Shown here piece by piece: positions 4,071-42,889 of a DNA stretch of 64,000 nt. The translations under genes and the position numbers were made by a program. The stretch is from NCBI GenBank assembly GCA_040758575.1, contig JBFLVH010000008.1:35624-99623 (forward strand), given 5' to 3'. Position 1 is the first letter of the stretch. Each line of letters starts with the position of its first letter. The notes beneath the pieces were generated by a model, which was given only the letters and a program-made list of their open reading frames with translations, made no database searches and was not told the origin of the DNA. Source of the DNA: Bacteroidota bacterium. Lineage in GTDB: Bacteria > Bacteroidota > Bacteroidia > B-17B0 > Aurantibacillaceae.

Positions 4071-5207
4071 TTAAAATTTACCAAGCTCATCATTTATTAG
4101 TTTAAACATTTCTGTTTCAGTTATTTTGAACTCATAATATATTTGCTTTAAACAACTATCTGCATTATCTTTAAAATCTTTTAATCTCAAAAGTCCTTTA
4201 ATACCAAATTTTTTGTATATTACATTTACTATTAATGCTGAAGACACATAAGCATCAGTAGAATTTGGTTTTTCATTAATTGTTTTGAATAAATTTTTAT
4301 TAAATGGATAGTATTTACTTTTAAATACTTTAAGTAAGTTAGAATAAGATTGATTTAAACTTCCTCCAAAAAATGTTGCTATACCTTCACTTAAAAAATG
4401 CCCTGTTTTTATTTTATTATCAACAACAAGATGCACTAATTCATGTGGATAATAAAATATTCCTTTTCCGGAAATTATCATTTTAGCGTCATAAAATGTC
4501 TTTCCAGTAGTATATCCTGCGTAAAAAAAATTAAATCCTAATAAATACCCTAAACTCTCTGGACTTTTACAAACCACAAAATTCACAGAATCTATTTTTG
4601 CTGAAAAAATATAAATCATACTATCAAGAAAATTTTTTGCTTTTTCCATTTCTAATTCATTTGGGTTTAAAGATGGTTCAATAATGTATTTTATTTTGTC
4701 ATAATTATATTTTTTCCAATTTGCTATTCTTTCTTCAAAAAGATTAAAAAGATACAAATTATTGTTTTGTTTTAAAATTCCAATTTCAACAATTGCAAAT
4801 GGGTTGGAGTTTAAAGATGCATTAGTGTCATTTGGCGTAAAATTAAAATGACAAAATGAGGTAGTTATATAGCAAGTATCACCTTGAGAACTAATAGAAA
4901 GAATATATGGTTTAAAATAATTTAGTAAAGATTTTTGGGGATACTGAAATAGAGATGAATAAAACAATGAGTAGTCATTCCCAAATTGTTTTATTTGAGA
5001 TGGTAGCCAATATTTTTTTCTAATAGAATCATTTTCTTCATACAAAAAATTTATCCAAAAATTCAAATACTCTTTACATGAAGATTGATTTAATGAAATA
5101 CTTGCTAAAGAATGTAAATAAAATTTAGGGGATGAGTTCTCTTTTTCTTGTGAAAAAACAAAACTTAAATAAAAACAAAATAAAATAGAAAATAATATAT
5201 GTTTCAT
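4071..5207 (-). CDS. Secreted HExxH metallopeptidase (peptidase MA-like), last gene of the lanthipeptide operon
   Basis: Signal peptide MKHILFSILFCFYLSFVFSQ. HELVH followed 15 residues later by SEGIATFFGG (gluzincin-like HExxH...E, resembling Peptidase_MA_2). Its start overlaps the lanM stop as ATGA (5204-5207). Confidence 0.6.
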   Translation of the reverse strand: MKHILFSILFCFYLSFVFSQEKENSSPKFYLHSLASISLNQSSCKEYLNFWINFLYEENDSIRKKYWLPSQIKQFGNDYSLFYSSLFQYPQKSLLNYFKPYILSISSQGDTCYITTSFCHFNFTPNDTNASLNSNPFAIVEIGILKQNNNLYLFNLFEERIANWKKYNYDKIKYIIEPSLNPNELEMEKAKNFLDSMIYIFSAKIDSVNFVVCKSPESLGYLLGFNFFYAGYTTGKTFYDAKMIISGKGIFYYPHELVHLVVDNKIKTGHFLSEGIATFFGGSLNQSYSNLLKVFKSKYYPFNKNLFKTINEKPNSTDAYVSSALIVNVIYKKFGIKGLLRLKDFKDNADSCLKQIYYEFKITETEMFKLINDELGKF

Positions 5208-8089
5208 AAAGATTTGTAATCTCTTGGTTTATTTGATGTAGGAGGATGGAGCAGTAAAATAGAGGGCATATTATAATCAAATAATAATTTTAATATATTA
5301 TATGCAATACCAGAATTACCCAAAAACAAACCATTCAATGAAAACTTTCCATTTTTAAATCCAGTTTTCCAATTTAATTCACCAGTAGTATCCTTTTTAT
5401 AAATTTCAAACACAATTTTATTTTTTGTTAAAGTTATTAAATTGTGATTTTTAGTTTTATATCCAATCGCCATTAACGTTTCTAAATTTCCTAACATTCC
5501 ATGACATAAACAATGTGAATGTTCGAATCCTTCTTTAAGAATAGTCCCTTTTATTTTATTCCAGTTAATATCAAAGTTAATAGGCAGAAGATTTTCAATT
5601 TCTAAATAAGCATTTAATATACCAGATGAACCATGGCACCAAGAAGGGGATGTTATTAAAAAATCAGAATATCGTAAATCTCTCCAACCTTGATAACTCT
5701 CAAAAAAATAATTGTTATTATATTTTATAATACTATTTAAAAACATAATATCTTTTTTTGTGTAACCAAATAATTCATAATATTTTGATAGAGCATATAA
5801 AATACCTGCATTACCATGTGCAAAACCAACTAAATATTTAAATTTATTGCATTCCCATGTTATGCCATTGGATGTAATAATTGCTGATTTTAGTATTTTT
5901 TGATATATTTTTTGAATAGGTAGTATTAAAGAATTTAGTTTTTCATTTTTATAGTAGTCAATAAGTAAAATCAATAAACCAGAACATCCATTTAATACAT
6001 CTATAAATGTATCAAATCTTATGTTATTTTTAACATATGGAACTAATTTCTGTTCAAATAATTCATTTAAATTTGTATTTTCAATATCGCCAATTATTTT
6101 ACTATAATGCCAATAAAAATAAAGGGTTGAAAATGGAAAATGGTAAGGTGAAAAAAGATAATATGATTTTGAGGGATTAAAATTTTTAAAAGTAAAAAGA
6201 GATTTATTCATAATAGATTGTGCGACCCTTTTGTATTTTGATTCTTTTGTAAATTTATATAAGTATAAATAAAACAATCCCAATCCATCTAATCCGTCGT
6301 AAATTCCAAAATTTTTCGGAGCAAACTCCCATTGACCAACTCTTCCTACATTAATATCTATCCATTGATATGATTTACCTACACGTATCCTATCATTTAG
6401 TACCTTTTCTGCTATTTGAATAATGTGTTTTTTTATTTTTTTCGTATCATAATTATAAGGTAATGAATTATTGTTTAAACTTTTCTTTTCAAGAATCTTA
6501 TTGTCTTTACTTTGTTCAAATTGATAAAAACACGAAATAGATTTTTCAATATATGAAATTTGATCTTTAATTACAGTATCAGATAATTTGTTTATTCTAT
6601 TAACCATCGAATGAAACCCAGACTTTTTTAAAATATAATACCTGTTGTTTTTATCAAAAATAAATTTTTTAAATGGTTTTGTATAAAATATAGGATAATC
6701 TAAATTTTGTAATTCTTTTATTTCAGATTCAATTAATTCCTTTGGGAAACAATCTTTATCATATGAACTATACAAATAATTCAAAATTTTTATTCTTTTA
6801 GAATAACTTTTTAAATTATCTGGATGTAAACTCTCTTTAAGAATTATATTATAGACATTTGTATGTCTCATTAACACTCTAGTACTAATATTATATTGAT
6901 TAATTAAGCTTTTAACAATGGAAATTAACCACTTTTTATTAATCATAATGAATCTACAACAACTATCAAAACCGTCGCAAATTTTCGAGCACATAACATC
7001 TATGGCTATCTTTTTATCAGATTTACTTGGAATGTGATAAGAATATTTAGGAAAGCTTTGAATTAAGTATTCTATCTTTTTGTTTCTACTAAAAAATAAT
7101 TTTGTGTGTGAAGAATGAATTGCTTCAAGGGATATACCACCAAAATTTAATCCTACATTATCTATTTTATTTGGTGTCCAAAAAGGAAGAAGTCCAGTGC
7201 CAATAACAGATTCTTTATAGTAATTTTCAATTAAAGGATAAGTATCGTTAATTGATGATTTTATTATGGGTTTAAATAAACATTCAGTGTCAATAAAAAC
7301 AGGTATTGTTTTCTTTACAATTATATTATCAGCAATTATATCAGATATTCCTAAAGAATAAAATAGAGCAAGGTATTTTCCAATATTCTCGTAATATAAC
7401 TTAACCCCCTTCTTTGAATTATTAGGTACATAATTAACAAACTCTTCCCAATAATAATTACATTTTATTAGCCTCTTTGGAAATATAAAAGGCAAATTAT
7501 AACCTTTTTCATTAATTTTTCTTATAATACATTCAAAAACTAAACTACTTTCATAAGGTTTTACTTTATATGCAATTTTTGAACCAGATTGAAATATTAT
7601 CACTGTATGTGTTTGACCATTGTTGTGAAAATCACCAATTGGCCATTGAATGGAGATGGGCACACTATCTATACCAAAATAATTCTGGATATCTTTTTTA
7701 TCATTTAAAAATCTGTCAATAAGATCAGAAAAATATTTGACATAATTTTGAATTGAAATATCAAGAATTCTTTTGAGTTGAGGATATTTACTAAAACAAG
7801 AATAAAATAATTCTTTTTTTCTAATAAACAAAATATTCTTGCGACCATCTTTATAAGTATCACTTAAGCTATTATATGTGTAAAGTATGGGAAATTTAAT
7901 TAATTCAAAAATTTGTATTGATATTGCTTCTGAAATAGAATTTATAAACAAAATGAGATTTTCATTATAGTTAATACTTTTTTGAAGTAATATAAATACA
8001 CTATTTTTAATTTCATTAAAATCATTATGACTAATTTCTTCATCAAATTCCTTTCTTAAATATTCATCACTTGAAAAATAAAATTTCAT
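5204..8089 (-). CDS. lanM: Class II lanthipeptide synthetase (LanM): N-terminal kinase-like dehydratase plus C-terminal LanC-like cyclase
   Basis: 961 aa. Motifs: GDFHNNGQTHTVIIFQSGSKIAYKVKP, DIIADN...FIDTE, SVIGTGLLP, RVLMRHTNVY. Cyclase motifs: YDGLDGLGLF, GFAHGNAG (H758), SWCHG (C818), CLCHG (C862/H863). Confidence 0.9.
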   Translation of the reverse strand: MKFYFSSDEYLRKEFDEEISHNDFNEIKNSVFILLQKSINYNENLILFINSISEAISIQIFELIKFPILYTYNSLSDTYKDGRKNILFIRKKELFYSCFSKYPQLKRILDISIQNYVKYFSDLIDRFLNDKKDIQNYFGIDSVPISIQWPIGDFHNNGQTHTVIIFQSGSKIAYKVKPYESSLVFECIIRKINEKGYNLPFIFPKRLIKCNYYWEEFVNYVPNNSKKGVKLYYENIGKYLALFYSLGISDIIADNIIVKKTIPVFIDTECLFKPIIKSSINDTYPLIENYYKESVIGTGLLPFWTPNKIDNVGLNFGGISLEAIHSSHTKLFFSRNKKIEYLIQSFPKYSYHIPSKSDKKIAIDVMCSKICDGFDSCCRFIMINKKWLISIVKSLINQYNISTRVLMRHTNVYNIILKESLHPDNLKSYSKRIKILNYLYSSYDKDCFPKELIESEIKELQNLDYPIFYTKPFKKFIFDKNNRYYILKKSGFHSMVNRINKLSDTVIKDQISYIEKSISCFYQFEQSKDNKILEKKSLNNNSLPYNYDTKKIKKHIIQIAEKVLNDRIRVGKSYQWIDINVGRVGQWEFAPKNFGIYDGLDGLGLFYLYLYKFTKESKYKRVAQSIMNKSLFTFKNFNPSKSYYLFSPYHFPFSTLYFYWHYSKIIGDIENTNLNELFEQKLVPYVKNNIRFDTFIDVLNGCSGLLILLIDYYKNEKLNSLILPIQKIYQKILKSAIITSNGITWECNKFKYLVGFAHGNAGILYALSKYYELFGYTKKDIMFLNSIIKYNNNYFFESYQGWRDLRYSDFLITSPSWCHGSSGILNAYLEIENLLPINFDINWNKIKGTILKEGFEHSHCLCHGMLGNLETLMAIGYKTKNHNLITLTKNKIVFEIYKKDTTGELNWKTGFKNGKFSLNGLFLGNSGIAYNILKLLFDYNMPSILLLHPPTSNKPRDYKSL

Positions 8090-8146
8090 CTCGCACTAAC
8101 TTCATTCATACAACCAGAAAATCCGGTCTAATTATTATCAAATTTA

Positions 8147-8386
8147 CTATTCTAAACCTATTGCAAACTCATATCTATCTACAACAAGTTTGAAACCAGA
8201 TGGAGATTCAGAAATATCAGCCTTTTTTATTTGAACTTTAGGTACATCACTAAAACAACAATGTACAACCGTGCCATCACACCCGCTTCCACTACCAGTT
8301 CCAGATGACCCTAATGCTCCATTGTATCTTTCAACTAGGAATTCTAACTCCTCTTTTCTCATTTTAATTACTTCAGTTAAAGCCAT
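8147..8386 (-). CDS. lanA: Putative lanthipeptide precursor (LanA) with a central Cys/Ser/Thr core and a C-terminal leader-like extension
   Basis: 79-aa ORF 57 nt upstream of lanM on the same strand. Core is SSGTGSGSGCDGTVVHCCFS (3 Cys, 7 Ser/Thr). Leader motif FLVERYNGALG is echoed near the C-terminus as LVVDRYEFAIG. Confidence 0.7.
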   Translation of the reverse strand: MALTEVIKMRKEELEFLVERYNGALGSSGTGSGSGCDGTVVHCCFSDVPKVQIKKADISESPSGFKLVVDRYEFAIGLE

Positions 8387-35943: not shown

Positions 35944-36234
35944 TTAACCGATAATTTTTGGCACTCTGAAATAATCTGAATCTTTTTTAGGAGCATTCGC
36001 AAGAGCATTTTCTTTTTTCAAAGTTTCTTTTACAACATCATCTCGCAGAATGTTTTGATTTGGAGTAAGATAAATAAGTGGTTCAACATTATCGGTGTTG
36101 AGTTCATTGAGTTGGTCAATGTAATCTAAAATGCGATTTAAGTCATTGAGTATTTTTTGTTTTTCTTCTGCGGTGAACTCTAAACGAGAGAGATGTGCAA
36201 GTTGGTCAATTAATTCTTCATTGATTTTTTTCAT
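35944..36234 (-). CDS. gatC: Asp/Glu-tRNA amidotransferase subunit C
   Basis: 96 aa. LAHLSRLEFTAEEKQKILNDLNRILDYIDQLNELNTDNVEP. Confidence 0.85.
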   Translation of the reverse strand: MKKINEELIDQLAHLSRLEFTAEEKQKILNDLNRILDYIDQLNELNTDNVEPLIYLTPNQNILRDDVVKETLKKENALANAPKKDSDYFRVPKIIG

Positions 36235-36973
36235 AGTAATGATTTAATTGTTCTTGAATAAATTGTTTTATTTTTAACTGCAAATCTAATAAATTTTTTT
36301 CAGTATATTCAGAAGTATCTATTGGCTTTCCGATGGCAATATGGGCAATACCAGGAAATCCATTGCTTTTGAAGAAGCCGCCATTTTCAAGTAAATGCCA
36401 GTTGTTCAAATTGGCTACTGGAATAATCGGCACTTTTTTTTGAATGGCTAATTTGAATGCTCCGTTTTTGAAGGGTTTTAATTTACCTTGTGGAGAAATA
36501 GTGCCTTCGGGAAATATAACCACACAAAAACCTTTGTCTATCCATTCTGCGGCTTTTTCAAAGGCACGAGCGGCATCCAAAGGATTCTGACGACGAACGG
36601 GAATGTCAAAATATTTGAAAAAGATATTGAATACAGGTATTTTTAATAACTCCGCTTTGCCAATAAATACTGCGGGTTGATGAATATAAAATACACTAAA
36701 TAAAATATCCAGATAAGAAGTGTGATTGGGTGTAATGATACAAGGAGATGGGAATTTGAACTTGCCTAGTGGATAAGTGATATTAGGTGCAAGTCCAGAT
36801 AATAAGCAAATGATAAAAGCCCAGATTTGCTTTAAGCGATAAACTAATTTAAATTGTTTGGTAACGAGTAATGTGTAAAAAATTGGAAATAACGCAAGAA
36901 GAGAAATTGAGAATACAAGGGCGAACCAAGATTTCCACAAGGTAATTATAAGCGTTCTGAAAATTTTTTTCAT
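36218..36973 (-). CDS. plsC: 1-acyl-sn-glycerol-3-phosphate acyltransferase
   Basis: HX4D motif NHTSYLDI and the FPEGT motif. 251 aa. Confidence 0.8.
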   Translation of the reverse strand: MKKIFRTLIITLWKSWFALVFSISLLALFPIFYTLLVTKQFKLVYRLKQIWAFIICLLSGLAPNITYPLGKFKFPSPCIITPNHTSYLDILFSVFYIHQPAVFIGKAELLKIPVFNIFFKYFDIPVRRQNPLDAARAFEKAAEWIDKGFCVVIFPEGTISPQGKLKPFKNGAFKLAIQKKVPIIPVANLNNWHLLENGGFFKSNGFPGIAHIAIGKPIDTSEYTEKNLLDLQLKIKQFIQEQLNHYYEKNQ

Positions 36974-37028: not shown

Positions 37029-38393
37029 TTACATGCTTTCCAGCGAATACTTTCTAATGATATTGAGTAATGATTGGTAATAATAATATTTTTGGGCTAT
37101 TTCAATAACTTTTGCTTGTGATTGTAAATAATATAATTCACGGGTGTTGATAGTGAAAAGGTTGCTTTCTCCCACTTTAAAGTTTTGAATTTCTGCCTGC
37201 AACATTTGATAATATCTATTATTCAACTGAATAGCAAAATTTAATTGATTAAAGTATTGTAAATAATTGTTGAAATAAATTTTAAGTTTGTTTTGTATTT
37301 GTTGAGATTTGAATTGAAATTCATTTTTAGTTTGTTGAATTTTTAGATTTATCAATTTGAGTTCTGCTCTTTCTTTTCTTAATAACAATGGAAATGATAT
37401 GTCTATACCCCATTTATAATTATTGGTATTTAGGGGATAATTGTAGTTGTCAGAAAATGGTTGTAGTAAAAAGTTGTATTTGATATTTAATTGTGGTTTT
37501 AAAAATTCAATTTTTAATTTTTTTTCTAATTGAAGTTGTTTTAGTTTGATTTGATAAGTTTTGAGTTCAGGATAATTAGGGATAATACTTGTAGTATCTA
37601 GATTTTGAAAAGTAATATTATTGGTAATAACGGGTGCTATAAAATTAGTATCAATGCTGTTATTTAAGTGCGTGAGTAATTGAAACTTTGAATTTTGATA
37701 ATCTAATAATGCTTTTTGATAAGACAATAAAAAATTTTGATATTGATTTCCTGCATCCAATGTATCAATGGGAGCGTTTTCTCCAGTTTTTACAGCGTTT
37801 TTTACATTCGTATATCTTTCATAAGATGTTTTGACTAAATTTTTGTACATTAACATTAAATTAAATTTTTCAAAGAAATTCCAATAATCTTGAATTATCC
37901 ATTCTAATGTGTTGATAATTTGAGCGTTCAAAAAAACTTTATTATTTCTACTTAATAATCGGGCAGTTTGTAAATTCAATCTTCTTTCATCGTAAAATAA
38001 ATTTCTTAAAACAGGAACACTTGCTCCTAATGAGAACAAGCCAGAAGGGGGGATGTAAGAATCATTATTGATATACATTCCTGATGCATAATTATAGTTT
38101 AAATTCAAATCAATTCCAGGATAAGTAGGTTGTTTAATTTCAAAGTTGTAATAAAGGAAGTAATTTTTATTATCAAAAAATTTATTTTGTAAGTCATAAG
38201 ATAATTTGGGGTCAAATTGTCCTTTTGCTTTTAAGAGATATGCTTTAAAGGTTTGAGTAGTTGTAATTTGTGCGTTTTGAATTAGTGGATGATTTTGTAA
38301 AATATAATCCAAAAACTTTTGAAAAGTGAGAGTATCTTGTGAGAAGAGAGAAGAAGCAAAAATTAAAAGAAATATTTTTAGTGATATTTTCAT
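37029..38393 (-). CDS. TolC-family outer-membrane efflux protein
   Basis: 454 aa, signal peptide, two-fold repeat of coiled/helical OEP segments. 4-nt overlap with the HlyD gene. Confidence 0.75.
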   Translation of the reverse strand: MKISLKIFLLIFASSLFSQDTLTFQKFLDYILQNHPLIQNAQITTTQTFKAYLLKAKGQFDPKLSYDLQNKFFDNKNYFLYYNFEIKQPTYPGIDLNLNYNYASGMYINNDSYIPPSGLFSLGASVPVLRNLFYDERRLNLQTARLLSRNNKVFLNAQIINTLEWIIQDYWNFFEKFNLMLMYKNLVKTSYERYTNVKNAVKTGENAPIDTLDAGNQYQNFLLSYQKALLDYQNSKFQLLTHLNNSIDTNFIAPVITNNITFQNLDTTSIIPNYPELKTYQIKLKQLQLEKKLKIEFLKPQLNIKYNFLLQPFSDNYNYPLNTNNYKWGIDISFPLLLRKERAELKLINLKIQQTKNEFQFKSQQIQNKLKIYFNNYLQYFNQLNFAIQLNNRYYQMLQAEIQNFKVGESNLFTINTRELYYLQSQAKVIEIAQKYYYYQSLLNIIRKYSLESM

Positions 38394-39739
38394 TTTTCTT
38401 TTGACTTATCAGATTTTGATTTGATGCTTTGTTCTTTTTGGGCATCAACATTGATATAAAAATCAGGTGGGAATCCATTGATTTGACGCCATATTTCATA
38501 CCATATTGGAACGGTTTTAAGTAAGGCAATACAGTTTGCTCCACCGCCTACATAAAGGTCTTTTGGCCAGGGATGGTCGGAAGTATCAGGCTCTACAAGC
38601 ACTCTATACATTCCATTTGGAGAGATAAATTTATCAATAGAATAAACTTTACCACCAAAGGTTCCATAACTTACGGAGGGCCATCCTGAAAACACGATGG
38701 CAGGCCATCCATCAAATTGAATGCGGATTTTACTTCCTTTTGCAAGTAGATTTACATCTAATGGTTTGACATACATTTCTACACCTATTTTGTAGTGTGC
38801 AGGCATTATATTCACAATAGGTTCGCCAGGATAAACTATTTCACCTACACCTGTTTTGATGGTTTTAAGAATGTAACAATCTTGCGGGGCGATGATATTA
38901 TAATTGCTTGTTCTTGTAGCATAATTAGAAGACGCCACCTGTAGTTTGAGTAATTCACTTTGAGCATCCATCAGAGCGCTTAAAGCAGAAAATTTATCTG
39001 ACTCTGCTTTGGAAATTTTTTCATTAAATTCATTTTCAATATTATGAAGTTCTACTTCTAATGAATAGTATTCATTCAAAGTGGCTTGATATTTATTAAA
39101 GGAAGCAACTTCTTTGGATTGTGCTTCTGCGAATTTTACTCTTCTGTTTTCAAGGTCGGTAGTAGATTTTAATCCTTGTTTATGAAGTTCTTCCATTCTT
39201 TCATATTGTTTTTTAGCGGCTTCTAAATTTTGAACGGCTGCTAACCACTCATTACTATCTGCAAGTAGTTTTAGTTTGGCTTGCTGAATTTTGTATAGGA
39301 TTTGTTGTCTTTTCAAATTACGAATTTTAATAAGAGCATCAATTTGAGTATTTAATGCGTTAATTTTATTTTCGTAACTGACAATGGCTTTTTCTTTGGC
39401 TTTGAGTTGTTCAGAAACTCTTTGAAGTAATTTGGGGTCAAAATAATCTGTTTTTATTTCTGCTATTTTAAGGATAGTGTCGCCTTTTTTTACGAAGTCC
39501 CCTTCTTTGTAAAACCATTTTTCAATTTTTCCTTCAATGACAGATTGAAGTGTTTGAGACCGAGATGATTGGTCTAACGAGGTAACATATCCTTTTGAGC
39601 GAAAATTTTGTGTCCATGGAAGAAATAATAAAATAAGAAGTAAATAAAAAAGCCATTTAAGAAAAGTAAAAAAAGGATTTTTTAATTTAATTTGAATCAA
39701 ATAGGATTGGAACTTTGAATAATATTTTTCTTTCTGCAT
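38390..39739 (-). CDS. HlyD-family membrane-fusion / secretion protein
   Basis: N-terminal TM helix, lipoyl-like EGDFVKKGDTILKI, long coiled coil, beta-barrel C-terminus. 449 aa. Confidence 0.8.
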   Translation of the reverse strand: MQKEKYYSKFQSYLIQIKLKNPFFTFLKWLFYLLLILLFLPWTQNFRSKGYVTSLDQSSRSQTLQSVIEGKIEKWFYKEGDFVKKGDTILKIAEIKTDYFDPKLLQRVSEQLKAKEKAIVSYENKINALNTQIDALIKIRNLKRQQILYKIQQAKLKLLADSNEWLAAVQNLEAAKKQYERMEELHKQGLKSTTDLENRRVKFAEAQSKEVASFNKYQATLNEYYSLEVELHNIENEFNEKISKAESDKFSALSALMDAQSELLKLQVASSNYATRTSNYNIIAPQDCYILKTIKTGVGEIVYPGEPIVNIMPAHYKIGVEMYVKPLDVNLLAKGSKIRIQFDGWPAIVFSGWPSVSYGTFGGKVYSIDKFISPNGMYRVLVEPDTSDHPWPKDLYVGGGANCIALLKTVPIWYEIWRQINGFPPDFYINVDAQKEQSIKSKSDKSKEK

Positions 39740-39756: not shown

Positions 39757-41451
39757 TTAGTATGGATAATTTCCTATATCATCATAATATTTAAGTTTTC
39801 CTTCTTTTAATAGAAGGATTTTATTAAAATAATTTTTATATTTTGTATCGGAGGCGCTTACTATTGTTGTCCATCCATATTGTTTGGTATTACAGATAAT
39901 ATCCAATAAAACAGGGACATCTTTTTCATAAATATCATTAAATATATTTTCAAAAATAATTAATTTGGGTTTTGTAACAATTGCCCTTAAAAATAATATT
40001 TTTGCAATGAATGATTTAGAATAGTTGTGTCCATAAGTCAGCATTTCTGTTTCATATTTATCAGGTAAATTATTGATGGTTTTATCCAGACCAATTTTTG
40101 ATGAAATGCTAATTAAAAAATCATAGTCATAATTTCTTCCAAGATGAATATTTTCAAGTATTGTTCCTTTGAAAATTATATCGCTATCTAAATAAGTTCC
40201 AATATTAAATCTCAATGCGTTTATATCATAAAGATAAATATCCTTATCATTAATAAAAATATCCCCTTTTGTAGGGAAGAGCAAAGTAGCAAATATTTTT
40301 TGCAAAGTTGTCTTGCCTGAATAACTTTCTCCAACTAATAAAACATTTTCAAATTCATTGATTTGTAAGTTAATATCATCTAAAATATTTTTATCAGAAT
40401 CAGGATAACGAAAGGATACATTTTTTAATTCAATTTTTATATAAGGTAAATCTTTAATTTTTTCTTGCAATAATTGTGGCAATGTTTCTTCTTTTAAATC
40501 TAATACTTCATGAATTTTTGCAAGTGAAACAATCATATCGTAAATGGTTCTAATCAAAAAGACCATTTTATCAAAAGAATTGACAAGTATAGAAATGACA
40601 ATTTCAGAAGCAACAAATTCTCCAATGTTCATTTGTTGTTCAATAACAAGAATGCTTCCAACAATTACAAAGAACATTATAGTGATAAATTTTACTATGT
40701 TTAATAAAATAAATTGTTTTTCAAGTGTGAAATAATGTTTGTTTCTATAATAATAGTAATTTTTGATAATGTTATCTAATTTTTGAAAATGCAATTCTGT
40801 AATTCCTGCTAATTTTAAGGAGGCAGAAGCGCTACCTGTCTCTTCAATCCAATAAGCAGTATCGTATTTATATTTTGAGTATTGAATTCCACTTTCCAAC
40901 CCTTTGTTGAATGTCCATTTAACACCAAAATAAATTACAACAAATAAAATTAAAATTAAAATAATAAATATCGGATGATAAAAACTTAATAATAGCATAG
41001 ATAAAATAATGATGATAGATGAAAAAGAAAAGTCAATAAGAATTTTTTGAACAATCTTTTGAAGAGTAACTACATCAAAAAAACGATTAGCAAGGTCTCT
41101 GGAATTTTGATAAATCATTTCAAGGTAGTGAAGGGCAGGGAATTTTTGAATGAACTTGAAAGAGAAATCAGCAAATATTTTTTGTTCAATAAACTCAATA
41201 ATTCTTAATTGATATATTTGAACAATGGCTGAAAAAATAATACTTATTGCTAACATAAACATAATTAGTACCAAAGAAACAGAATATGCCGCTCCTTGTA
41301 TAAAGTTAATAAGCAATTGAATACTAATAGGAAAAATCAAAGAAAAGAAAGACATTATTAAACCTAATGCATATATTTGTAATATTTCTTTTTTGTATTC
41401 ATTGAGTAATTGCAAAAAGTGATGCCAAATATTTTTTGTGTTATTTGCCAT
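39757..41451 (-). CDS. ABC exporter half-transporter (TMD-NBD) with a degenerate nucleotide-binding domain
   Basis: 564 aa with a 6-TM ABC_membrane-like N-half. Walker A GESYSGKTT is present. Signature is YSKSF (for LSGGQ), Walker B is LIIFEN (for hhhhDE), the H-loop His is absent (VSASD) and the Q-loop Gln is absent (YLDSD). No C39 domain. Confidence 0.75.
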   Translation of the reverse strand: MANNTKNIWHHFLQLLNEYKKEILQIYALGLIMSFFSLIFPISIQLLINFIQGAAYSVSLVLIMFMLAISIIFSAIVQIYQLRIIEFIEQKIFADFSFKFIQKFPALHYLEMIYQNSRDLANRFFDVVTLQKIVQKILIDFSFSSIIIILSMLLLSFYHPIFIILILILFVVIYFGVKWTFNKGLESGIQYSKYKYDTAYWIEETGSASASLKLAGITELHFQKLDNIIKNYYYYRNKHYFTLEKQFILLNIVKFITIMFFVIVGSILVIEQQMNIGEFVASEIVISILVNSFDKMVFLIRTIYDMIVSLAKIHEVLDLKEETLPQLLQEKIKDLPYIKIELKNVSFRYPDSDKNILDDINLQINEFENVLLVGESYSGKTTLQKIFATLLFPTKGDIFINDKDIYLYDINALRFNIGTYLDSDIIFKGTILENIHLGRNYDYDFLISISSKIGLDKTINNLPDKYETEMLTYGHNYSKSFIAKILFLRAIVTKPKLIIFENIFNDIYEKDVPVLLDIICNTKQYGWTTIVSASDTKYKNYFNKILLLKEGKLKYYDDIGNYPY

Positions 41452-41530: not shown

Positions 41531-42889
41531 TCACCTTATCATCCATCTTATTATTTCCTTCCATGTGGCTTTTTTACCATACATTAAAATGCCTGTGCGA
41601 TAAATTTTGGCTGAAAGTTGAGTCATTACAAGAAATGATAAATATAATAATACCAGAGAAATCAATACTTCCCAAAACGGCACGCCAAAGGGCAAACGAG
41701 CCATCATTACAATGGGTGAAGTGAAAGGAATAAAAGACGCCCAATAAGAAAGCGAAGTATCAGGATTAGAAATCATTTTAGCAGCAATGAAATATCCTAC
41801 CATTAAAAGCAGTGTTACTGGCAATGTGAATTGTTGTGCATCTGTTTCTGTATCTGCTGCACTGCCTAATGCTGCCAATATAGCACTATAAAATAAGTAT
41901 CCACCTACAAAATATAACACAAAGCATATTGCTATTTCAAAAAAATTTAATTTATCAATTTGTTTTAATAATTCAAATGCCTGCAATTCTCCCTGAAAAT
42001 TTTCTAATTGATTCCAGTTGGCTTCCACACCTTTTTCATATACTTCTTTTTGTTGTTTTAAGTATTTCTGATAATCTTCTCTTACACCACTCATCAAGGT
42101 TACAGAGACAATAGTCACCAATATAAAAGTCATAATTCCCATAACTATAAACTGCCCTATGCCTAATACAGCAATGCCAAGAATTTTTCCCATTAATAAT
42201 TGAAATGGACGAATAGAGGATACAATTACTTCTACTACTCTGTTATTTTTTTCTTCTATCACACTTTTGAACAGCATCATTCCATACATTGTAATGAACA
42301 TAAACATTAGCAAGGCAGATAAAAAACCAAAAATACTCATAAATGCTGTGATTTGCTCTGAATGCTCTCCTTTTTCATTAACCTTTTCAGTTATTATTCT
42401 CACATTTTGTCGGGCACTATTTATAGTTTGTGGATTAATATTATTAGCCAATAATTTATGTTCAAATAATAATTTTTCCATTTGCGACTTAATCATTGTT
42501 TGAAAAGCCAATCCCGGTGTTTTTTTGTAAAATAATTTTACTGTGCCACCTGCTCCATCTATTATATTATGTGGAATGTATAACAGCACATCTACATCTT
42601 CACGATTGAGTTTATCCAAACATTTTTCTAATGAATTATTTGAATATAAAAATGTGATGTAATTATTCCCCAAAAGTTTTCCAACAAAAAATTGCGACTC
42701 ATCTGCTACCAATACATTGTATTCAGTTTCTTCTTCAGTACTTAACCAAAACATTAATGCAACAAAACCTGCAATAATAAAGGGTGTTAAGAAAGTCATT
42801 AAAATAAAAATTTTGTTGCTGATTTTTCTTTTTATTTCAAATGCAATGACAAGAAAAATTTTTTTCATATTAATATATATTTGTTGCAC
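41531..42889 (-). CDS. ABC-2 type transporter permease (NatB/YhaP-like)
   Basis: 452 aa. One N-terminal TM helix, a large extracytoplasmic loop, then 5 C-terminal TM helices. No cognate ATPase gene adjacent. Confidence 0.65.
   Translation of the reverse strand: MQQIYINMKKIFLVIAFEIKRKISNKIFILMTFLTPFIIAGFVALMFWLSTEEETEYNVLVADESQFFVGKLLGNNYITFLYSNNSLEKCLDKLNREDVDVLLYIPHNIIDGAGGTVKLFYKKTPGLAFQTMIKSQMEKLLFEHKLLANNINPQTINSARQNVRIITEKVNEKGEHSEQITAFMSIFGFLSALLMFMFITMYGMMLFKSVIEEKNNRVVEVIVSSIRPFQLLMGKILGIAVLGIGQFIVMGIMTFILVTIVSVTLMSGVREDYQKYLKQQKEVYEKGVEANWNQLENFQGELQAFELLKQIDKLNFFEIAICFVLYFVGGYLFYSAILAALGSAADTETDAQQFTLPVTLLLMVGYFIAAKMISNPDTSLSYWASFIPFTSPIVMMARLPFGVPFWEVLISLVLLYLSFLVMTQLSAKIYRTGILMYGKKATWKEIIRWMIR

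Follow-up and report, generated by a model that had tools for sequence, protein, structure and literature searches.

A predicted pseudo-ATPase in a conserved Bacteroidota ABC-HlyD-TolC system whose transport is probably not driven by ATP hydrolysis in the inner-membrane subunit

The window analyzed here, a stretch of 64,000 nucleotides (nt) from a Bacteroidota bacterium (GenBank assembly GCA_040758575.1, contig JBFLVH010000008.1, positions 35,624 to 99,623 of the forward strand), contains a cassette of three co-directional genes for a half-transporter of the ATP-binding cassette (ABC) type, an HlyD-family adaptor and a TolC-like outer-membrane factor (OEP), which is the composition of a tripartite ABC/membrane fusion protein/outer-membrane factor system. 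We focused on the transporter subunit, referred to as the query in the following, and specifically on its nucleotide-binding domain (NBD), whose catalytic motifs depart from those of ABC ATPases. The genes and domains of the cassette are:

39757..41451, minus strand: ABC-fold inner-membrane subunit, 564 amino acids (aa), consisting of a six-helix type IV exporter transmembrane domain and a catalytically degenerate NBD (open reading frame, Pfam, AlphaFold2 (AF2) and Foldseek)
40462..41451, minus strand: transmembrane domain (TMD) of the subunit, residues 1-330 (AF2 helices, TMD profile)
39757..40434, minus strand: degenerate NBD of the subunit, residues 340-564 (pLDDT 85-92; substitution rates in orthologue pairs, given below)
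38390..39739, minus strand: HlyD-type periplasmic adaptor, 449 aa (PF13437, 40 bits), separated from the preceding ABC gene by 17 nt
37029..38393, minus strand: TolC-like OEP, 454 aa (PF02321, 91.3 bits), overlapping the adaptor gene by 4 nt

The NBD of the query is recognized by PF00005 with 54.1 bits over residues 357-500 (cut-off 25); the canonical NBDs of the same genome reach 80-128 bits. Against the membrane model PF00664 the query obtains 21.5 bits, under the cut-off of 28, and its relatives obtain 31-43 bits. The adaptor is matched by HlyD_3 (PF13437) and Biotin_lipoyl_2 and scores 82.6 bits, under the cut-off, against TIGR01843; its PF13437 match and the PF02321 match of the OEP both exceed their cut-offs. 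Among the NCBIfam models, those of type I secretion and bacteriocin export (LssB, HlyB, NHLP and PrtD, 124-142 bits) rank highest for the ABC protein, but every one of the following falls below its cut-off: LssB (TIGR03375) with 142.5 of 693.1 bits, HlyB (TIGR01846) with 140.9 of 725.55 bits, PrtD (TIGR01842) with 124.2 of 510.15 bits, and the PCAT/bacteriocin models TIGR01193 and TIGR03796 with 115.6 of 523.85 and 138.4 of 853.3 bits, respectively. These profile scores indicate kinship with the ABC families of type I secretion and bacteriocin export, but membership in none of them.

The AF2 model of the ABC protein (pLDDT 85.2, pTM 0.77; pLDDT 85-92 over most of the NBD) places six helices in the TMD: TM1 20-53, TM2 58-106, TM3 117-158, TM4 161-207, TM5 220-270 and TM6 276-317. 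Foldseek superimposes this model on HlyB (8dck_A, TMq 0.87), PCAT1 (8vox_A, TMq 0.90) and PrtD, all three at a TMq of 0.8-0.9, which identifies the predicted fold as that of a type IV exporter; further matches are TM287/288 and TmrAB. At the sequence level, the relationship only became visible with a profile of the TMD: phmmer with the TMD alone found no match in the PDB, whereas the TMD profile A2 retrieved ComA (6e-16), PCAT1 (1e-9) and HlyB (3e-9). Profiles and predicted fold thereby trace the ABC-HlyD-TolC system back to PCAT/type I secretion ABC exporters. A preliminary description of the locus had reported that an N-terminal C39 domain is absent, and the model agrees: no C39 or other N-terminal domain was found, and TM1 begins at about residue 20 (elbow helix).

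The register of the NBD motifs was established by three routes, namely HMMER alignment against ABCB1/ABCB4 chains, MAFFT alignment against the five other half-transporters of the genome, and back-translation of coordinates. The resulting positions are:

40306..40332, minus strand: Walker A (P-loop) GESYSGKTT, retained; in comparison with canonical GxxGxGK[ST], Lys380 and the Thr are present and the second Gly is Tyr
40186..40188, minus strand: Q-loop position, Asp422 instead of Gln (alignments)
40009..40023, minus strand: signature position, YSKSF instead of LSGGQ (alignments)
39946..39963, minus strand: Walker B, LIIFEN versus hhhhDE, with Asp replaced by Glu and the catalytic Glu replaced by Asn
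39850..39852, minus strand: H-loop position, Ser534 instead of His (alignments)

GESYSGKTT conforms to the general P-loop pattern GxxxxGK[ST]. Beyond this motif, the equipment of a competent ABC ATPase is missing: the query has neither the Asp-Glu (DE) pair of Walker B nor the combination of LSGGQ, Q-loop Gln and H-loop His, and its D-loop reads NDIY instead of SALD. The preliminary description had assigned the same states to these motifs by eye, with Walker A kept and the Q-loop Gln, the signature, the Walker B DE and the H-loop His lost. Its assignments stand, as the profile alignment did not recover canonical motifs; a misplacement of motifs was considered and rejected because three independent alignments agree. 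Judged by its residues, the NBD is a pseudo-ATPase that has retained the ABC fold and, in this lineage, the P-loop.

In an ABC dimer, one chain contributes Walker A/B, Q-loop and H-loop to each ATP site, and the opposite chain contributes the signature. Since the query chain has a dead Walker B/H-loop as well as a dead signature, it would spoil both composite sites, and no partner could rescue catalysis; as a homodimer, which we assume, the protein would have two dead sites. The pattern of heterodimeric exporters with a single degenerate site is thus not what we observe: the query chain is defective on both faces and the cassette holds no partner. In line with the preliminary description, no second ABC or NBD gene was found in the operon, and the upstream neighbour at 41531-42889 (minus strand, 452 aa) is an ABC-2 permease (PF12698, 190 bits) and not an ATPase.

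The same columns are degenerate throughout the family. By a word-indexed search, we collected 120 homologues with 33-73% identity from Flavobacteriaceae (Flagellimonas, Aquimarina, Ulvibacterium) and uncultured Bacteroidia; all 120 are without the canonical Q-loop Gln, signature and H-loop His. The Q-loop column is occupied by Ser (51), Thr (27), Ala (15) and Pro (11) and never by Gln, the signature has the consensus I-S/P-Y/F-T/S-I, and the H-loop column contains Gln (40), Ser (33) and Glu (15) and never His. At the position of the Walker B Asp we found Lys in 72, Glu in 45 and Asp in two sequences, and at the position of the catalytic Glu, Asp in 84, Glu in 24 and Asn in 12. Walker A, by comparison, is almost fixed, with G374 in 120/120 and both G379 and K380 in 119/120 sequences. 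Column entropies amount to 0.0-0.07 bits at these three positions (0.07 at K380) and to 2.3-2.7 bits at the Q-loop, signature and H-loop. Across a tree built from the TMD, at least 10 different Walker B pairs and 11 different H-loop residues occur, a variability from which the former catalytic positions appear to be unconstrained. Because identical columns are degenerate in every one of the homologues, the motif loss is not a chance pattern; on the evidence of these alignments, it is a trait of the family and not a local defect.

Conservation beyond the motifs tells how the domain as a whole evolves. For orthologue pairs with unsaturated synonymous rates, the Nei-Gojobori ratio of non-synonymous to synonymous substitution rates (dN/dS) ranges from 0.03 to 0.15 in the NBD and from 0.02 to 0.075 in the TMD, and 47 columns are invariant over the 120 sequences. 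Pairwise identity within the family is 0.71 for the TMD and 0.48 for the NBD, while among the canonical exporters of the same genome it is 0.18 and 0.42, respectively. Conservation is consequently inverted relative to normal ABC exporters: the NBD is less conserved than the TMD. The preliminary description had allowed for a pseudogene should orthologues evolve neutrally at the motif positions; these columns do drift freely, yet gene and NBD are under purifying selection, and the domain should therefore be regarded as a pseudo-enzyme domain.

For a wider view, 140 NBD-bearing representatives of 50%-identity clusters were tallied in a MAFFT alignment and, as a safeguard against register errors, again in an HMM-anchored (hidden Markov model) alignment, with agreeing results. 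Walker B DE and H-loop His occur together in none of the 140. Here the P-loop is affected as well: the Walker A Lys is present in 96/140 and the full GK[ST] in 73/140 representatives, some P-loops are unrecognizable, and about 30% of these diverse clusters have lost the P-loop.

Other relatives extend this picture at both ends. The relatives from Chlorobia/Kapabacteria (Chloroherpeton thalassium, Chloroherpetonaceae, Ca. Kapaibacterium) have kept Walker B DE and H-loop His; they are without the Q-loop Gln and carry signatures such as VSIGM, LPLGL and LSxGQ. Most of these proteins comprise 690-830 aa with an extra N-terminal domain, and one (L089) comprises 583 aa without it. One Bacteroidia group (724-726 aa, TetR-linked) shows LLILND in Walker B and Asn in place of the His, and the main group has the Walker B forms KD, ED or EN. 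At the other end, the NBD is deleted: in two Pedobacter-type genomes (G179 and G259), the genes L083:7099-8103 and L084:6981-8003 encode proteins of 334 and 340 aa that match PF00664 only; the HlyD and OEP genes follow immediately, and the stop overlaps the HlyD start. At least 120 such TMD-only clusters, with 72-94% mutual identity, exist in Pedobacter/Mucilaginibacter (Sphingobacteriaceae), and on the TMD-based tree these members form a clade with 100% support that is nested inside the degenerate group. A dedicated trans-acting NBD was not evident in the two NBD-less Pedobacter genomes, where the top family-like NBDs all reside in fused exporters of 580-780 aa, which is not decisive. As reconstructed from these sequences, the family presents a graded series of NBD decay. 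Loss of the P-loop and deletion of the NBD in relatives imply that the system does not depend on nucleotide binding in all its members. The earlier proposal of an ATP-binding-only component thus fits the lineage of the query, in which the P-loop is kept (K380 in 119/120), but cannot be extended to the clusters without P-loop or to the Sphingobacteriaceae.

The cassette itself is widespread and stable in its composition. A scan with one genome per species found a relative in at least 586 species genomes, including Flavobacterium (F. psychrophilum, F. branchiophilum), Tenacibaculum, Polaribacter, Olleya, Aquimarina, Flagellimonas and Fluviicola as well as Crocinitomicaceae, Saprospiraceae, Chitinophagales and Cytophagales. 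When the phylum was sampled evenly, 68 of 301 genomes and 45 of 144 genera proved to carry the gene, in single copy in all but one genome, and a TMD-only profile detects 1463 clusters (50% identity, E<=1e-30) among 1.84 billion representatives. We then scanned 82 loci for the cassette genes, a TetR-family gene and canonical NBDs only. The order ABC-HlyD-OEP on one strand is preserved in 82/82 loci; the HlyD adaptor follows the ABC gene in each of them and scores 400-800 bits, and the OEP is the third cassette gene in every locus of sufficient length. A particular TetR-family gene lies directly upstream in about 65 of the 82 loci, and a canonical NBD gene lies within 7 kb of the cassette in only two, where it is incidental. 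The query belongs to a sub-clade (with P0002, P0003, L002 and P0005-7) on a long branch, in which all members have EN in Walker B and no TetR gene; in the genome of the query, no homologue of the cassette TetR gene was found. Full gene lists were read for two loci, and neither shows a conserved cargo gene beside the cassette.

Hydrolysis of ATP is the defining feature of ABC exporters, and the textbook view of tripartite ABC/HlyD/TolC systems is that of machines driven by ATP. The protein encoded at 39757..41451, however, is probably the inner-membrane component of a tripartite duct, conserved in Bacteroidota, in which the NBD acts as a pseudo-ATPase and transport is not driven by ATP hydrolysis of its own. 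This would follow directly from a homodimer with both sites dead. The defects on both faces of the chain, the lack of an ABC gene linked to the cassette and the occurrence of members without P-loop or without NBD converge on the same, simplest reading. The suggestion of the preliminary description that the protein may be a non-hydrolyzing component of a tripartite exporter is thereby supported and extends to a large family. In such a duct, the highly conserved TMD, as the universal core of the family, would do the transport work, and the NBD would be kept as a structural or regulatory module that possibly binds nucleotides and is dispensable in some lineages. Because the NBD is constrained and the P-loop is kept near the query, a structural or nucleotide-sensing role is likely there, in the query's neighbourhood of the family and not in the family as a whole. 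Since a TetR gene is usually present and no cargo gene is linked, a small molecule or lipid seems more likely as substrate than a protein.

Given the catalytic loss and, in relatives, the deletion of the NBD, the duct would have to be powered or gated in another way. Here, one residue of the TMD stands out:

40603..40605, minus strand: Glu283, located in TM6 seven residues in from its periplasmic end (family alignments, AF2)

Glu283 is invariant in the alignments A1-A3 and in 146/146 representatives, and it aligns to a conserved Asn of ComA and PCAT1. It is the sole invariant charged residue that clearly lies within the membrane, at the same depth as the conserved Gln45 of TM1, and together with P41, Q45 and Q52 it forms the set of invariant polar residues in the lumen-lining helices TM1 and TM6. 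An intramembrane salt bridge with K254 was considered and dropped, since the two residues are about nine helical positions apart in depth (in the AF2 model, the distance to the periplasmic end of the helix is 16 residues for K254 in TM5 and seven for E283 in TM6). The invariance of this TM6 glutamate makes proton coupling the leading guess: by analogy with proton-driven transporters of related fold, the proton-motive force could act via Glu283 as the energy source. Alternatively, a small molecule made by the cell might be released downhill, in a gated manner, through the duct of adaptor and TolC. Taken further, the family as a whole (about 1,500 clusters, mostly Bacteroidota) could form a distinct energetic class of tripartite envelope pumps, with a secondary TMD that is proton-coupled or purely gated, coupling at Glu283 and an NBD in staged decay; we put this forward tentatively, as a possibility that we rate somewhat below even. 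If true, it would provide a natural series from catalytic loss via P-loop loss to deletion, in which a primary transporter turns into a secondary one.

Several points weigh against transport without hydrolysis by the ABC protein. Glu283 is also present in 111/120 wider relatives, including those with DE and His, so that it predates the catalytic loss and alone is no evidence for a switch of the energy source; it may be a pre-adaptation rather than a replacement. The loss of hydrolysis is deduced from the residues, and homodimerization is assumed. The P-loop is almost invariant in the nearer relatives of the query and the NBD is strongly constrained, from which it follows that the domain does something, and this may be a weak, unorthodox hydrolysis. 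Finally, the query sits in a long-branch sub-clade without the TetR gene and may have diverged in function.

The alternative that survives best is that the ABC protein is a passive scaffold, uninvolved in energy coupling, which anchors the HlyD-TolC duct for a substrate that enters from the periplasm or the outer leaflet. The adaptor indeed surpasses the ABC protein in conservation (400-500 bits at about 35% ABC identity), some lineages dispense with the NBD, and pumps of the MacB and RND type draw their substrates from the periplasmic side. What makes a mere scaffold unlikely is the TMD itself: its periplasmic loops are very short in the AF2 model (residues 54-57, 159-160 and 271-275) and hence leave no periplasmic domain for substrate capture, and the invariant polar residues P41, Q45, Q52 and E283 on TM1 and TM6 are the pattern expected of a translocation path.

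We regard it as less probable still that the NBD hydrolyzes ATP or another nucleoside triphosphate by an unorthodox mechanism and thereby powers export. Such a mechanism would account for the P-loop Lys in 119/120 near homologues, for the low dN/dS of the NBD (0.03-0.15) and for the acidic residue that is usually left at one Walker B position (ED, KD, EN, EE), but the columns that would have to be catalytic are among the most variable of the domain, with at least 10 different residues and entropies of 2.4-2.7 bits versus 0.07 at K380. Moreover, the Walker B Asp is Lys in 72/120 sequences, which is incompatible with coordination of Mg2+, signature and D-loop for the ATP sandwich are gone, the P-loop Lys is absent in about 30% of the diverse clusters, and a whole group has no NBD.

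Heterodimerization with a canonical half-transporter encoded elsewhere, which would supply the hydrolyzing site, is very improbable. Exporters with one degenerate site are common (TM287/288 and TmrAB, both among the Foldseek matches), and the search for paralogues proposed in the preliminary description did yield five other TMD-NBD half-transporters in the genome, mostly with consensus NBDs: apart from the one on contig C10, they carry canonical Q, LSGGQ or LSAGQ, DE and His. All five, however, are only distant, with scores against the query that do not exceed 84 bits; the cassette is without a linked ABC gene in 82/82 loci; neither composite site of such a dimer would be consensus, since both faces of the query chain are dead; and members without P-loop or NBD retain the same cassette. 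The idea of a partner NBD encoded elsewhere has thus found no support, even though the C10 protein is of the degenerate-site type and has no adjacent partner. This half-transporter (C10:22054-23844, plus strand, outside the window; 596 aa) reads LIDD and SQK with an intact signature VSGGQ, which is the classical single-degenerate-site pattern.

The reading as a pseudogene, left over from an ABC gene of type I secretion and now in decay, which the loss of nearly all catalytic motifs and the drift of their columns might suggest, is refuted by reading frames that are intact in the query and in 82/82 loci, by the 47 invariant columns and by a dN/dS far under 1 in both domains, and it is at odds with a fold that AF2 predicts with confidence.

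A comparison with characterized systems places the family between known types. With PCAT1/ComA and HlyB/PrtD, its best half-transporter matches by profile, it shares the full-length type IV exporter fold (Foldseek TMq 0.80-0.90), the TM1 P..Q motif and the R-F-x-D motif of intracellular loop 1 (ICL1), and with HlyB/PrtD also the operon partners, an HlyD-type adaptor and a TolC-type channel. It differs from all of them by the lack of a C39 or C39-like domain, by non-canonical Q-loop, signature, Walker B, D-loop and H-loop, and by having no linked cargo gene and usually a linked TetR regulator, and from PCAT1/ComA also by the replacement of the TM6 Asn with the invariant Glu. TM287/288, TmrAB, BmrCD and CFTR resemble the query in that the catalytic Glu and the H-loop His are lost and Walker A is kept, but they always possess one consensus site with a co-encoded partner, whereas both faces of the query chain are defective. 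According to PMC7544095, the degenerate site of heterodimeric exporters binds nucleotide and barely turns it over.

ABC-exporter-like TMDs that work without ATP and are driven by a proton gradient through conserved glutamates have been described: SbmA/BacA (SLiPT), which has a glutamate ladder, and LmrA without its NBD (PMC8442886). The TMD-only members of the Sphingobacteriaceae are formally analogous to both. SbmA, however, is an importer outside a tripartite duct, with no coupling helices and an extra TM0, and has no detectable sequence relationship to the family, which in turn has long intracellular helices, a mostly vestigial NBD and a single invariant membrane Glu instead of a ladder. 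A 2021 Chem Rev review of tripartite systems covers single-site degeneracy only, and our full-text literature searches turned up neither an account of this family nor one of a tripartite ABC exporter that is a homodimer with both sites dead.

The family makes the question of energy coupling directly testable and should be of interest to transporter biologists. It is a natural experiment on what the ABC fold needs ATP for, the power stroke or the reset, and it allows one to ask whether a type IV exporter TMD can run on proton-motive force. The evolution from primary to secondary transporters, a question raised by SbmA and Rv1819c, could be studied within one family that holds all intermediates. 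The current annotations of its members, "peptidase domain-containing ABC transporter" or "ABC transporter ATP-binding protein", are both misleading. The family is also present in fish pathogens, e.g., Flavobacterium psychrophilum and Tenacibaculum.

Some observations concern the surroundings of the cassette. In the window, the ABC-2 permease gene (41531-42889) sits between uvrC and the cassette with no adjoining ATPase gene; it was considered as a component of the system and as a hint at an ATPase that is missing, and rejected because it is absent from the cassette in 82/82 other loci. On the opposite side, a gene for a PlsC-type acyltransferase (36218-36973, minus strand) follows 55 nt after the OEP gene and overlaps gatC (35944-36234, minus strand) by 17 nt; no such gene stands beside the cassette in the two other loci with gene lists read (L001 and L002). 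That the ABC-HlyD-OEP cassette serves in export or immunity for the lanthipeptide cassette at 4071-8386 is unlikely, as it is chromosomal, phylum-wide and independent of lan genes. A sigma-70 promoter scan returned 45 sites versus 39.6 expected.

Other loci of the family offer further details. The N-terminal domain of the longer relatives measures 160-230 aa (L086:6461-8635, L090:6115-8295, L087:6383-8854 and L091:6294-8615), and these extensions match no Pfam family. The immediate upstream neighbour of the family ABC gene is uvrA in two genomes that belong to one family (L088:8429-11290 and L085:3383-6337); with its double NBD it was considered as a candidate partner, but this looks like conserved, incidental synteny. 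In a close relative of the query (GCA_017880035), at least eight tandem DUF5618 genes (PF18498, about 137 aa) are located directly upstream of the cassette (L002:2220-7838), where they are interspersed among nuo (complex I) genes.

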